From: an uncultured Bacilli bacterium
GTDB taxonomy: Bacteria; Bacillota_I; Bacilli_A; RF39; UBA660
Reading direction: 5' to 3'
Assembly: GCA_947628985.1 (NCBI GenBank)
Contig: CANRCA010000001.1
Span: 1 to 46,664 of the forward strand
DNA length: 46,664 nt
Under the pieces are notes generated by a model that worked only from the letters and a program-made list of their open reading frames with translations, was not told the origin of the DNA and did no database searches. Positions 1 to 3,555 of this stretch are shown piece after piece (position 1 is the first letter of the stretch; each line of letters begins with the position of its first letter). The position numbers and the translations under genes were made by a program.

Positions 1-20
1 CATTAAAGAAAACTATATAA
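1..20 (+). CDS. 3' end (partial) of a further upstream paralog of the TPKTG-anchored surface protein family
   Basis: nt 1-75 match 1906-1980 and 4576-4650, which are the last codons (..LKKTI, TAA) plus the downstream block of the two complete paralogs. Stop codon at 18-20. Confidence 0.7.
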
Positions 21-125
21 TATTAAAATTTAAATTTTAATATGTATATATACATGAGATGTAGTAAAACTACTTCACGAGGTGGCTGATTTTTTTAAAG
101 AGTTGGCATATATTTAGAATTCTAT
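1..125 (+). repeat. Conserved 3'-end/downstream block of surface-protein paralogs (copy 1 of 3)
   Basis: Near-identical to 1906-2030 with a few substitutions. The first 75 nt are also shared with 4576-4650. Contains the 14-nt palindrome atgtatatatacat (42-55). Confidence 0.85.
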
Positions 126-209
126 TAAATATATTGAATAAATTAATAATATTAGATAATAAGCAATTTTTTGAATATAATATTAATATAGATTATTTTG
201 TACTGAATA

Positions 210-238
210 TTGACTTTTAGTACAATTTGTATTATATT
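210..238 (+). promoter_or_regulatory. Sigma-A-like promoter for the antitoxin RNA/toxin operon
   Basis: TTGACT (210-215), 17-nt spacer, TATATT (233-238). Lies about 30 nt upstream of the repeat array. Confidence 0.5.
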
Positions 239-271
239 AATATTGCATTTGAAAAAGTGCATTAATTAGAA

Positions 272-376
272 AATGTTTCTCGCTCCCGGATGGTGCGAGT
301 AATAAATTATTCCGGACGACAATGTTTCTCGCTCTCGGGTGGTGCGAGTAATAAATTATCCCGAACGAAAATGTTA
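272..376 (+). ncRNA. Type III antitoxin-like RNA: 49-nt direct repeat x 2.1
   Basis: Repeat units begin at 272, 321 and 370 (the last partial). Each unit has a CTCGC/GCGAG hairpin (279-283/295-299; 328-332/344-348). The hairpin loop pairs with a downstream pentamer: CCGGA 286-290 with TCCGG 311-315, and TCGGG 335-339 with CCCGA 360-364. The two units differ by two compensatory base-pair changes. Confidence 0.8.
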
Positions 377-378
377 TG

Positions 379-412
379 AAAACTTCTATCGCTATGATAG
401 AGTTTTCTTTTT
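379..412 (+). terminator. Rho-independent terminator between the RNA repeats and the toxin ORF
   Basis: 11-bp stem, aaaacttctatc (379-390) with gatagagtttt (396-406), one bulged T, followed by cttttt. This is the position expected in type III TA loci. Confidence 0.7.
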
Positions 413-432
413 ATATATGAAGGAGTGCAATT

Positions 433-921
433 ATGAAAGTTAAAACAGGGTATTTATATCATATAAAAGATGAATTTTTTGAAAAAGTTAATGATGAAAG
501 TCTTATGACTAATCATGAACTTGGTAAAAAAAGACCTACATATTTTACTATTAAAGATAAAAATATTTTATGGTTTATTCCATTGAGTAGTAAAGTAGAA
601 AAATATGAAAGGATAATTGCTAAAAAAGTTAAAAAATATGGTAGTTGTAATACTATTCTTATTAGAAAAATTTTAGGTAAAGATTCAGTTATTTTATTAC
701 AAAATGCTTTTCCTACAATAGAAAAATATATAGATCATGTTCATTTACTTGATAATGGTAAACCAGCTAAGGTAATTGAATCATTAAAAGATGAAATATT
801 AGTAAATTTTAAATATTTATTAAAATTAAAAAAACAAGGAATAAATTTATTTTTTACAGATATTGATAAAATTGAAAAACTTATGTTAAAAGAATTAAAA
901 GAAATTAAAAATAGCAAATAA
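433..921 (+). CDS. Type III TA toxin, ToxN/AbiQ/CptN-like endoribonuclease
   Basis: 162 aa with RBS aaggag upstream. The N-terminus (YxIKDEFFEKVND ... WFIPLSSKVEKY) resembles the ToxN/AbiQ pattern (Y..YL..FD.KV ... Y.APL[ST]SPK) as I recall it. The gene context (repeats plus terminator) is diagnostic. Confidence 0.75.
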   Translation: MKVKTGYLYHIKDEFFEKVNDESLMTNHELGKKRPTYFTIKDKNILWFIPLSSKVEKYERIIAKKVKKYGSCNTILIRKILGKDSVILLQNAFPTIEKYIDHVHLLDNGKPAKVIESLKDEILVNFKYLLKLKKQGINLFFTDIDKIEKLMLKELKEIKNSK

Positions 922-956
922 AAAGCAAAAATAAAGCTCTAGCTGCATTCGTCGCA

Positions 957-1925
957 ATGCCATTAGTAAATGCTGCAGAACATGAATATGATGCTGCTCA
1001 TTATGTTGCAACTAGTAAAGTAAGCGAAGGTACAACAAAAGCTACTTGTACAGCAACAGCCAGCACAATGGAAGATAATACATTAGATGTAGTGTGTAAC
1101 GCAATAACTGATGTTGAATTAGAAAATGTTAAAGCTGCTGATGCTAAAGGATTTAAGACTGAAGGAAGAGGATATTGGCTTAATGTTCAAGTTGATTTAT
1201 CAGGTTTACATACAGATGTTTCATTAGAACATGCTGAATCTACAGTTAATTTTAATGGTCAAACTATAAGATTAAATAATGATAAATATGTAACTAAAAA
1301 TAAACTTGATTTATGGGTTAAATTAGATCCTAACAAAATCGGAACTAAAGAAAAAAGTAGTCCAGTAGTTGCAATCCTAAACTTCCGTGATACTAAAGAT
1401 AATGAAGGAAATGGAAAAACATATAGTCAAAAATTAAATATAAGAGTTGACTATACTAGTTCAACATCTAAAAATACTCCTAAAACATCAGGAGTATATG
1501 TACTTCAAATTGCAAAATCTTTAGATGGTAAAATTGGAAAACCAGAAACAGTATATGTACCATTTACTGAAACTGCACCAAAACTAAATAAAGTTAGTGA
1601 ACTAGATAAATATTTAACTGAAACTGGATATTTATTTAGAGGTGTAAAGGAAACTACAGATTTTCAAACTGCTACAACTCTTGTTGATTTAGCTGCAACT
1701 GATCTTACAGATGGTAAAAAATATGTAGTAGTATTTGAAAAAGATTCAAATTATGTAGCACCAGCAGATAAACCTGAAGAAACACCAGGAAGTAGTACTA
1801 CAAAACCAGCAGATAAAGATAAAGATAGTACACCAAAAACAGGAAATACTGATTTAATGGGATTCGTTCCATTGATGACATTACTTTCTTTAGTTGGAAT
1901 TGTAACATTAAAGAAAACTATATAA
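957..1925 (+). CDS. Cell-wall surface protein paralog A (TPKTG sorting signal); N-terminus apparently truncated
   Basis: The C-terminus is TPKTGNTDLMGFVPLMTLLSLVGIVTLKKTI, i.e. an (S/P)PxTG-like motif, a TM helix and a basic tail. Homologous to 3574..4596. The first ATG lies inside the signal-peptide region of paralog B. The upstream frame is open only back to TAG 912-914 and contains no ATG, GTG or TTG. Confidence 0.7.
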   Translation: MPLVNAAEHEYDAAHYVATSKVSEGTTKATCTATASTMEDNTLDVVCNAITDVELENVKAADAKGFKTEGRGYWLNVQVDLSGLHTDVSLEHAESTVNFNGQTIRLNNDKYVTKNKLDLWVKLDPNKIGTKEKSSPVVAILNFRDTKDNEGNGKTYSQKLNIRVDYTSSTSKNTPKTSGVYVLQIAKSLDGKIGKPETVYVPFTETAPKLNKVSELDKYLTETGYLFRGVKETTDFQTATTLVDLAATDLTDGKKYVVVFEKDSNYVAPADKPEETPGSSTTKPADKDKDSTPKTGNTDLMGFVPLMTLLSLVGIVTLKKTI

Positions 1926-2030
1926 TATTAAAATTTAAATTTTAATATGTATATATACATGAGATGTAGTAAAACTACTTCACAAGGTGGCTGACTTTTT
2001 TTAAGAGTTAGGAATAATATTTTGAATTCT
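1906..2030 (+). repeat. Conserved 3'-end/downstream block (copy 2 of 3)
   Basis: Matches 1-125. Confidence 0.85.
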
Positions 2031-2063
2031 TAATATCTTTAATAATATTTATTATAAAAACGC

Positions 2064-2097
2064 TTGATTTCCACCAGAAATTATCATATAATGATAA
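2064..2097 (+). promoter_or_regulatory. abiE promoter with overlapping inverted repeat (candidate AbiEi operator)
   Basis: TTGATT (2064-2069), 17-nt spacer, TATAAT (2087-2092). A perfect inverted repeat, TTATCAT-ata-ATGATAA (2081-2097), spans the -10 element. Confidence 0.55.
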
Positions 2098-2111
2098 ATA
2101 GAGGTGAAAAT

Positions 2112-2702
2112 ATGATAATAACAAGTAATATTGCTAAAAATTCTATGATTAACTATTCTAATAAAAATACTAAGTTATCAAGAGAAGTTAAAGAAGGAAA
2201 GTTAATCAAAATTATAAATGGATTATATGAAACAGATATTAATACACCTAGCTATTTATTAGCTGGAAGTATATATGGACCATCATATATTTCTTTTGAA
2301 TATGCTTTATCTTATTATGGATTAATTCCTGAAAGAGTAAATGTTATAACTTGTGCAACTTTTAATAAGAAAAAGAAGAAAATTTTTAATACGCAGTTTG
2401 GAACTTTTACTTATAGAGATGTTCCAATATTAGCTTATCCAGAAGAAATAATTTTAAAAGAAGAAAATAATTATTCATATCAAATAGCAACACCAGAAAA
2501 AGCATTATGTGATAAATTATATACTTTAAAGCCATTATTGAATTATAGTAATTTAGAAAAAATATTATTTGATGATTTACGTATTGGAAAAATTGAATTT
2601 GATAAATTAGATATTGATAAAATAAATAAATTAAGTAATTTATATCATTCAACAAATATTGAATTATTAGCTAAATATATGAGGAGAAATAAAAATGAAT
2701 AA
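2112..2702 (+). CDS. abiEi: AbiEi-family type IV TA antitoxin / transcriptional regulator
   Basis: Start moved to ATG 2112, behind RBS agaggtg. The TTG at 2064 in the ORF track is the -35 box. The motif GLYE...YLLAGSIYGPSYISFEYALSYYGLIPE is typical of AbiEi. Overlaps the downstream AbiEii gene by 8 nt. Confidence 0.75.
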   Translation: MIITSNIAKNSMINYSNKNTKLSREVKEGKLIKIINGLYETDINTPSYLLAGSIYGPSYISFEYALSYYGLIPERVNVITCATFNKKKKKIFNTQFGTFTYRDVPILAYPEEIILKEENNYSYQIATPEKALCDKLYTLKPLLNYSNLEKILFDDLRIGKIEFDKLDIDKINKLSNLYHSTNIELLAKYMRRNKNE

Positions 2703-3555
2703 TATAATAAATCAAATGATTTCGAAATATGAAATTAAAAATACTAATGATGAAATTAATGCTTTAAAAGAAATAATTCAAGAGATAGTTTTATCTAGTT
2801 TATCAAGAGGAAAATTTTTTGATGAAGCTGCATTTTATGGAGGTAGTGCATTAAGAATTTTTTATAATTTAGATAGATTTTCAGAAGATTTGGATTTTGC
2901 ATTAATTTCTTCTAATAATAATTTTGATTTAAATAAATATTTTGTATATATTGAAAAAGAATTAAAAGCATATGGATTAAATTTAGAAATAGATTCAAAA
3001 AATAAAAAATTAGATTCTAATATTGAATCTGCTTTTGTAAAAGGAGATACATTAAAACTTATTTTAAAATTTTTTCCAAATGAACAAAATCATAAATATA
3101 ATTACATTTTAAAAGATATTAAAATCAAATTTGAAGTAGATATTAATCCTGCAAAAGGAGCAACATATGAAGATAAATATAAATTATTGCCTAGTCCTCA
3201 TCAAATAAAATTATATGATAAAGAATCTTTATTTGCAGGAAAAATTCATGCTATTTTATGTCGTAATTGGAAAACTAGAACTAAAGGAAGAGATTTATAT
3301 GATTATATATTCTTTTTATCTAATTCTACTAAAGTAAATATAGAATTAATTAAAAATAAGTTAATAGCATCAAATTATATAGATCCTAATTGTGATTTTA
3401 ATATAAATTTATTAAAAGAATTATTAATAAAAAAATTTAATGAAATAGACTATAAAGAAGCTAAAGAAGATATTATGCCATTTATTAAAGATGTAAATAG
3501 TTTAAATTTATGGAATAAAGAATTTTTTATAAATATTACTGAAAATTTAAATTAA
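2695..3555 (+). CDS. abiEii: AbiEii/AbiGii-family nucleotidyltransferase toxin (DUF1814)
   Basis: FYGGSALRIFYNLDRFSEDLDFAL matches the GG[ST]AL...R.S.DLDF nucleotidyltransferase motif of AbiEii. Bicistronic with the AbiEi gene. Confidence 0.8.
   Translation: MNNIINQMISKYEIKNTNDEINALKEIIQEIVLSSLSRGKFFDEAAFYGGSALRIFYNLDRFSEDLDFALISSNNNFDLNKYFVYIEKELKAYGLNLEIDSKNKKLDSNIESAFVKGDTLKLILKFFPNEQNHKYNYILKDIKIKFEVDINPAKGATYEDKYKLLPSPHQIKLYDKESLFAGKIHAILCRNWKTRTKGRDLYDYIFFLSNSTKVNIELIKNKLIASNYIDPNCDFNINLLKELLIKKFNEIDYKEAKEDIMPFIKDVNSLNLWNKEFFINITENLN

Follow-up and report, generated by a model that had tools for sequence, protein, structure and literature searches.

Type III toxin–antitoxin (TA) systems fall into three families that are set by similarity of the toxin (Blower 2012, PMC3401426). 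In ToxIN of Pectobacterium and Bacillus and in AbiQ/antiQ, a self-processing endoribonuclease toxin is paired with an antitoxin RNA made of tandem, pseudoknot-forming repeats, with a terminator intervening between the two. ToxI units are 34–36 nt long, triplex-stabilised and assembled into 3:3 heterohexamers, whereas CptIN forms a 2:2 heterotetramer in which the second loop of the RNA adopts an A-minor twist. TenpIN of Photorhabdus luminescens shares the type III layout, with ~2 longer repeats of 39–57 nt (PMC3401426 Table 2), and the cptIN loci surveyed in 2012 comprised 1.9–3.4 copies of 40–48 nt, none of them plasmid-borne (PMC3401426). In cptIN systems, growth arrest by the toxin is countered by the cognate repeat RNA, and the toxin processes the repeats to single units with a 2′,3′-cyclic phosphate. 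The structurally characterized CptIN is that of Eubacterium rectale (4RMO; PMC4627078, PMC3401426), whose toxin uses a Ser-Ser/Thr-Arg triad and specifies adenine through Asp81, Ser85 and Tyr104 (PMC4627078).

Here, we analyse a locus at positions 198–921 of a 46,664-nt stretch of DNA from an uncultured Bacilli bacterium (contig CANRCA010000001.1 of assembly GCA_947628985.1), referred to below as the window. Like CptIN of E. rectale, it consists of a promoter, ~2.1–2.2 tandem repeats, a terminator and a toxin gene, all found in the canonical order, so that the complete type III locus proposed in a preliminary description of this DNA holds, with every element named there present and displaced by no more than 1–3 nt. 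We consider it highly probable that the locus is a chromosomal cptIN type III TA module in a very AT-rich, RF39-like gut Bacilli genome. It is an intact further member of the cptIN family with a slightly longer repeat, and not the founder of a new antitoxin class.

The toxin gene and its relatives

Downstream of the repeat array there is only one long open reading frame (ORF), 433..921 on the forward strand, the same 162-aa frame that had been picked out before. Profile searches of this ORF, suggested at the time as a check, matched it to the CptIN family: the NCBIfam equivalog NF047359 (‘type III toxin-antitoxin system CptIN family toxin’) scored 160.7 bits against a cutoff of 90 (E = 2.2e-47) and was covered from profile position 1 to 149 of 150. 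Among PDB sequences, the sole meaningful phmmer match was CptN of E. rectale (4RMO_A; E = 4.1e-17, residues 5–147 vs 4–149), and a profile built from 99 homologues returned the same chain at E = 2.6e-50, again with no other meaningful match. ToxN/AbiQ chains were absent from the PDB sequence searches at E ≤ 10.

The CptN fold, a Kid-like, twisted antiparallel β-sheet with four helices, is without the kinked helix found in ToxN; it was assessed as a whole via Foldseek superposition. An AlphaFold2 model of the ORF product (mean predicted local distance difference test, pLDDT, 93.8) had 4RMO_A as its best match (template-modelling (TM) score 0.82/0.85, root-mean-square deviation 2.2 Å over 158 columns, 29% identity), followed by AbiQ (TM 0.72), MazF, CcdB and ToxN-Bt (TM 0.64). 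The folds of AbiQ and ToxN-Bt are thus related to that of the window protein, albeit at 15–18% identity in the structural alignment. Judged by sequence and modelled fold, the ORF is predicted to encode a CptN toxin, not a ToxN/AbiQ one. The ToxN/AbiQ-like motifs formerly seen at its N-terminus were not confirmed, the similarity being to CptN, with AbiQ and ToxN as distant structural neighbours; membership in ToxN/AbiQ was rejected, as no sequence model matched and the likeness is one of distant fold only. The accompanying remark that the locus stands closest to cptIN was borne out by NF047359, by the sequence and profile matches to 4RMO and by Foldseek. As to TenpIN, the window toxin matched only CptN in the NCBIfam and PDB searches, and no TenpN model was identified in the libraries.

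Compared with the E. rectale active site, the window toxin keeps some residues and differs at others. Ser52-Ser53, Arg34-Pro35, Lys57 and Ser85 align with E. rectale Ser51-Ser52, Arg30-Pro31, Lys56 and Ser85, respectively, and at least 90% of the 99 homologues keep S52, R34, P35 and K57. E. rectale Arg53 corresponds to Lys54.

Relatives of the protein are numerous: 2648 were found among 90%-identity protein clusters (E ≤ 0.001), none informatively named, 1001 among 50%-identity clusters (E ≤ 1e-3), and 400 stretches encode a relative among contigs sampled at one genome per species. The best 80 of these 400 genome stretches encode toxins of 69–83% identity. Almost all of the 80 are gut metagenome-assembled genomes labelled uncultured Bacilli, Tenericutes or Erysipelotrichaceae, with rabbit, roe deer, sheep, chicken and human as sources. 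Among the loci whose contigs reach far enough upstream, 69 have two complete copies of this repeat and no more, at periods of 48 nt (11 loci), 49 nt (17), 50 nt (27) or 51 nt (14), and all parts of the module are conserved in ~70 relatives. Homologues lacking upstream repeats, which would have spoken against a type III locus according to the preliminary description, are limited to a lone apparent exception, L015, and this one has the end of an insertion sequence (IS) upstream.

On the L015 contig, which ends ~560 nt upstream of the toxin homologue and contains no repeats, an intact cptN is directly preceded by a TnpB-like C-terminus with zinc-ribbon motifs (ORF 16–321) and a GC-richer stretch (~367–457); one possibility is that the array was not lost but displaced. 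In L027, the array is located ~310 nt upstream of cptN, and the gap (538–848) holds sequence resembling the IS end of L015. Two repeat arrays each were found in L027 and L028.

Relatives also occur on viral contigs and plasmids. A protein-alignment scan of viral (IMG/VR) contigs yielded 56 loci (L161–L216) with toxins 31–78% identical and repeats of 44–49 nt, and none of 50,697 cultured phage records was matched in a tblastn search. CptN homologues of 33–43% identity are encoded on 17 PLSDB plasmids (Clostridium perfringens, Megamonas, Fusobacterium, Weissella and others), in all cases annotated as ‘hypothetical protein’.

The repeat RNA and its relation to CptI

The 49-nt repeats previously placed at 272, 321 and 370 were recovered by two programs: Tandem Repeats Finder reported one array at 269–375 (period 49, 2.2 copies, 89% matches), and a direct-repeat search two 49-nt copies of 90% identity. 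The array consists of two full 49-nt repeats followed by the 6-nt start of a third unit (272–375). Within each unit, CUCGC and GCGAG form a first stem (S1), and a pentamer in its loop can pair with another one located 21 nt further downstream to give a second stem (S2); L1 and L2 denote the two loops of the resulting pseudoknot. The motif GA(N0-2)AAUGUU recurs at 269–277, 318–326 and 367–375. Scored with the covariance model R1, unit 1 reached 76.0 bits (E = 3.6e-21) and unit 2 75.9 bits.

Units 1 and 2 differ at five positions, namely 271/320, 286/335 (C>T), 290/339 (A>G), 311/360 (T>C) and 315/364 (G>A), such that C286-G315 becomes U335-A364 and A290-U311 becomes G339-C360. These two compensatory changes within one locus are exactly those given in the preliminary description; the probability that five random differences cover two complete pairs out of ten, complementarity not yet being required, is P = 0.001. 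To score the stated pseudoknot (five S1 and five S2 pairs) across the clade, 86 distinct units were aligned with MAFFT. In this alignment 93.5% of cells are paired, double changes occur in eight of the ten pairs and 116 cells are compensatory, giving a covariation score of 0.367 as compared to 0.185 ± 0.009 for shuffles (equalled by 0/500) and no more than 0.168 for slid controls. Both helices covary (all five S2 pairs and three S1 pairs), and the column pairs of highest mutual information are the predicted helix pairs. Covariation across ~70 loci, as well as the compensatory changes inside the window locus, thereby sustains the pseudoknot originally claimed. Compensatory differences in S2 between units 1 and 2 are present in 40 of 55 distinct loci, so the internal covariation of the window is typical of its clade.

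Of all intra-locus differences, 40% fall in the 10 S2 columns. In the arrays of L001–L080, S2 pairing averages 4.1 bp across units vs 4.8 bp within a unit; the divergence between units could reflect selection against mis-pairing of neighbouring units. Mutual information also singled out columns 15/41 (window 285/308) and columns 8/34 beyond the helices. Position 285 in L1 and position 308 near the 3′ end of L2 (also 334/357) covary in the 86 units, as C:U (44), U:G (30) or U:A (10), and map to G13 and G35 of E. rectale CptI (±1 nt; MAFFT), which form an L1–L2 stacking contact in the 4RMO crystal (PMC4627078). The UGG of the junction at 291–293 (340–342) is invariant in all 86 distinct units, in a junction longer than that of E. 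rectale CptI, and is a candidate protein or tertiary contact.

The RNA aligns with the crystallised CptI. From gut contigs we recovered the E. rectale unit (45 nt × 2.1), which in the register of Rao 2015 reads AAGUUU-ACCAC-UG-ACCGA-UAU-GUGGU-AUAUAAAUGG-UCGGG-UUGA and fits the published G13 (L1), A27–G35 (L2), U30 kink and G44-A45 3′ end (PMC4627078). The commonest IMG/VR unit, AAUGUUU-GUCGC-UG-CUAGA-UAU-GCGAC-UAAUAAAUAG-UCUAG-UUCA, is on its face visibly intermediate between the E. rectale and window types. In a MAFFT alignment, S1 of E. rectale, of the 46-nt class of IMG/VR loci and of the window occupy the same columns, and the 3′ strand of S2 in E. rectale and the 46-nt class lies one column off that of the window because their L2 is 1 nt shorter. 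The crystal-derived helices also covary within the E. rectale-type and 46-nt units (9/10 pairs, score 0.642 vs 0.307). A302 and U303 of the window, invariant and at least 90% conserved, respectively, in the 86-unit alignment, align with A29 and U30 of E. rectale, where mutation of either abolishes antitoxicity (PMC4627078).

Intermediates were also reached by searching with the RNA itself. The collection of homologous loci and the covariance model proposed in the preliminary description were realized with ~70 loci, and the resulting clade model bridges to distant cptIN repeats: it finds repeats upstream of toxins 31–45% identical to that of the window at E values of 1e-15 to 1e-3 and reaches E. 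rectale-type variants marginally (E 0.006–0.14), in the right place and on the right strand throughout. Among its matches, at E ~1e-6, are the uncharacterised 46-nt-repeat cptIN loci of IMG/VR (L175–L212). Their toxins are 31–41% identical to the window's, and they share with it the AAUGUUU tail, an S1 of the form NNCGC/GCGNN and UAAUAAAU in L2; they differ in a shorter junction, L2 and linker, in repeats that are often 100% identical within a locus, and in lying on contigs predicted to be viral.

The order of elements in the window unit is that of E. rectale CptI, i.e. a 5′ tail ((A)AUGUUU in the window, AAGUUU in E. rectale), a 5-bp S1, a short L1, a 5-bp S2, a long, A-rich L2 built around AUAAAU, and a 3′ tail whose last bases are GA. 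The two differ in unit length (49 nt in the window vs 45 nt), in L1 (2 vs 1 nt) and in L2 (11 vs 9–10 nt), the extra length being distributed as ~1 nt each in L1, the S2–S1 junction and L2, plus 1–2 nt in the linker. A further difference is that the window units diverge in S2 by compensatory changes, whereas the E. rectale repeats are identical. With 49 nt, the window unit lies 1 nt past the range of the 2012 survey, and the repeats of CptN relatives are continuous over 44–51 nt. By its architecture and alignment, the window RNA is classified here as a CptI.

Flanking signals and genomic neighbourhood

The features of the locus are collected in Table 1.

Table 1. Predicted elements of the cptIN locus (positions in the window).
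Feature	Position	Strand	Details
Inverted repeat, −35 box in loop	198..225	+	Arms 198–207 / 216–225, 10 bp
Sigma-70-type promoter	210..238	+	TTGACT (210–215), 17-nt spacer, TATATT (233–238); 10/12 matches
Leader hairpin GCAUUU-GAAA-AAGUGC	245..260	+	Minimum free energy fold; at predicted transcript 5′ end
cptI repeat unit 1 (49 nt)	272..320	+	S1 279–283/295–299; L1 284–285; S2 286–290/311–315
Remaining elements of unit 1			Junction UGGU 291–294; A-rich L2 300–310; linker 316–320 running into unit 2
cptI repeat unit 2 (49 nt)	321..369	+	S1 328–332/344–348; S2 335–339/360–364
Third-unit start AATGTT	370..375	+	Conserved linker 3′ of unit 2; presumed processing site
Intrinsic terminator between antitoxin and toxin	378..412	+	378–384 and 386–390 pair with 396–407; loop 391–395; T-run 408–412
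Shine-Dalgarno AGGAG	421..425	+	7 nt upstream of ATG; read from sequence
cptN, CptN-family endoribonuclease toxin (predicted)	433..921	+	162 aa; NCBIfam, PDB, AlphaFold2/Foldseek

In DNA of 22–27% GC, a promoter scan performs at chance level when taken alone (9 sites vs 9.3 expected). The site claimed at 210–238 is nonetheless present, and 64 of 72 related loci have TTGAC[TA]-17-TATATT equally far from their repeats. The inverted repeat around its −35 box is possibly part of the module: the segment 188–233 folds at −10.2 kcal/mol (z = −3.9), and ~19 of the 59 distinct relatives have a palindrome with other arm sequences at this place. An operator function, an insulating terminator and a cruciform are all conceivable. 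In another subset of relatives, GTATACTAT...ATAGTATAT flank the −35 and −10 boxes. The leader hairpin is likewise kept in relatives, where the changes in its stem compensate each other (GCACUU/AAGUGU or ACAUUU/AAAUGU, for example), and may serve as a stabilising 5′ stem-loop.

A simple consensus scan detected no terminator in the locus; the stem is AT-rich and bulged. Folding revealed a 12-bp hairpin with one bulge (378–407) followed by TTTTT (408–412), matching the terminator assigned earlier to 379–412, and an equivalent hairpin with T-run is found in nearly all related loci, where changes in the stem are compensatory. A Shine-Dalgarno-like motif precedes the toxin gene in most relatives.

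The window has a GC content of 17–28%, and nearly all of its genes lie on one strand. Downstream of cptN follow, in order, a 322-aa protein, AbiEi, AbiEii, proS, infC and rplT, which places the locus on the chromosome, in a small TA/defence islet; a second cptN or a second repeat array was not found in the window. The 322-aa ORF directly after cptN (957–1925) matched no Pfam or PADLOC family. Given its Thr/Pro/Lys-rich region and hydrophobic C-terminal segment, its product may be surface-anchored. The AbiE pair (type IV TA/abortive infection), 1.1 kb downstream of cptN, is complete: AbiEi (2064–2702) was recognized by PADLOC (E = 3.7e-62), with no Pfam match, and AbiEii (2695–3555) by PF08843 (E = 1.7e-29) and PADLOC (E = 5e-97). 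Farther along, ribosomal protein L20 (7289–7819) has a SAP (DNA/RNA-binding) domain at its C-terminus (PF02037, E = 6.5e-07), an unusual fusion.

Alternative readings, mechanism and meaning

Several observations weigh against assigning the locus to cptIN. On the protein side, the toxin matched no Pfam-A family at E ≤ 1, ToxN included, and no PADLOC model at E ≤ 1, because the CptN family is absent from those libraries. Where E. rectale has Tyr104, a residue stacked on G44 that specifies the scissile A (PMC4627078), the window toxin has His104, and E. rectale Asp81 sits in a one-residue insertion that the window toxin lacks; the cut-site specificity of the window CptN may consequently differ from that of E. 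rectale. On the RNA side, the window-clade covariance model misses the canonical E. rectale unit at E ≤ 1, and nhmmer between the window repeat family and E. rectale CptI gave no significant match in either direction, so that the case for RNA homology rests on the intermediates and the architecture alignment. The base preceding AAUG varies (where units 1 and 2 meet, C stands in place of A), and the UGGU junction between the 5′ strand of S2 and the 3′ strand of S1 measures 4 nt, as compared to 1–3 nt in E. rectale, depending on which terminal pairs are counted. The longer junction may alter coaxial stacking.

One rival reading makes the RNA a new type III antitoxin class, with a fold of its own and paired with a CptN-like toxin. 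The preliminary description had entertained such a class, holding the 49-nt unit and its fold to be distinct, and the idea gains from a unit 1 nt above the 40–48 nt of 2012, from the negative nhmmer result, from an invariant UGG within a 4-nt junction not seen in E. rectale and from an Rfam scan of window positions 1–3000 that returned no match at E ≤ 10. The Rfam miss is uninformative, however, since a bona fide E. rectale CptI locus used as control gave chance matches only, i.e. Rfam 15 has no CptI model. Moreover, the RNA has the H-type topology and element order of the crystal structure, its helices align with those of E. rectale CptI (with S1 in shared columns), the AUAAAU core of L2 and the counterparts of A29 and U30 are conserved, unit lengths form a continuum over 44–51 nt, the covariance model bridges to distant loci, and type III families are in any case defined by the toxin (PMC3401426). 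A new RNA class was therefore rejected on CptI architecture, intermediates and length continuum, and we regard it as highly improbable. Little more can be said for a module that has ceased to work as a TA pair, be it a decaying relic or one with a nuclease-dead toxin. The unlike neighbours of the active site (His for Tyr104, no Asp81) are compatible with such decay, the family is known to include CptN genes that are short or partial (PMC3401426), and in some relatives an insertion that lies between repeats and toxin disrupts the locus. The window ORF is, however, full length and 69–83% identical to 80 intact homologues, and His104 is no private lesion but the majority residue of the window's branch among the 99 homologues. 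Promoter, repeats, terminator and Shine-Dalgarno sequence are intact and conserved, and the compensatory changes in S2 indicate continuing selection on the RNA fold. Given the full-length ORF, the intact conserved parts and the S2 compensation, we rejected a relic locus as quite unlikely.

The position of the array in a 5′ leader, followed by a terminator, resembles an attenuator, and the repeats might work purely in cis, as a leader that controls transcription or translation of the downstream gene, instead of as a trans-acting antitoxin. Yet tandem complete pseudoknot units with conserved single-stranded linkers are the hallmark of type III antitoxins, one processed repeat of E. rectale CptIN neutralises the toxin in trans (PMC4627078), and inspection of the relatives' alignment, the one means by which this was judged, revealed no conserved antiterminator pairing between repeats and terminator. 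For these reasons a cis-acting attenuator was rejected; its probability appears minimal. The role of a genuine cptIN module is a different matter. That it stabilises its genomic neighbourhood or aids stress dormancy, and does not defend against phage by abortive infection, falls only somewhat short of an even chance in our estimate. The CptN homologues on 17 PLSDB plasmids fit such a role, and the cptIN loci tested so far were working TA pairs that stabilised plasmids and conferred no coliphage protection in Escherichia coli (PMC3401426, PMC4627078). The abortive-infection role that the preliminary description attached to this layout accordingly did not find support for the window locus. On the other hand, the negative phage tests employed E. 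coli and coliphages, far from the native hosts, and ToxIN, AbiQ and TenpIN do abort infection. The AbiE system 1.1 kb downstream creates a defence-island-like setting, and 56 related loci reside on IMG/VR viral contigs.

For the module read as cptIN, we propose a mechanism modelled on E. rectale CptIN (PMC4627078) and on the general type III scheme (PMC3401426); for the window module, the toxicity, the self-processing and its exact cut site, the complex stoichiometry and the biological role are inferred by homology only. The single promoter would drive a transcript that starts near position 245 and comprises the short leader hairpin followed by the two 49-nt CptI units. Most transcripts would end at the terminator and a minority read on into cptN, such that antitoxin RNA would be produced in excess over toxin. 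CptN, an endoribonuclease of Kid/MazF-like fold, would then cut the precursor in the conserved, single-stranded linker GA(N0-2)AAUGUU, which corresponds to UUGA|AAGUUU of E. rectale CptI. Each released unit would adopt an H-type pseudoknot, with a 5-bp S1, a 2-nt L1, a 5-bp S2 and an 11-nt A-rich L2 in the minor groove of S1, and the folded units would bind CptN via their single-stranded tails to form a closed, inactive protein–RNA ring. Upon a stop in transcription or degradation of the labile RNA, free CptN would cleave cellular or phage RNAs and arrest growth.

A more specific idea, which we hold to be rather unlikely, is that the clade carries a structurally distinct CptI variant, marked by the invariant UGG in a 4-nt junction, the covarying L1–L2 contact and a pair of units diverged in S2. 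If so, the units might fold without mis-pairing with their neighbours, and two toxins might assemble asymmetrically with a single unit-1 RNA and a single unit-2 RNA, or the complex might have some other stoichiometry unlike that of E. rectale CptIN.

The conceptual gain from the locus itself is small, as the protein is already named as a CptN toxin by an NCBI family model and the fold of the RNA is that of CptI. As a by-product, a large, hitherto unnamed cptIN clade comes into view in uncultured gut Bacilli, with enough variation for a covariation-supported alignment of CptI RNAs, which Blower et al. reported in 2012 to be out of reach (PMC3401426). The conserved UGG junction, A302/U303 and the 285/308 contact could serve as guides for CptI mutagenesis.

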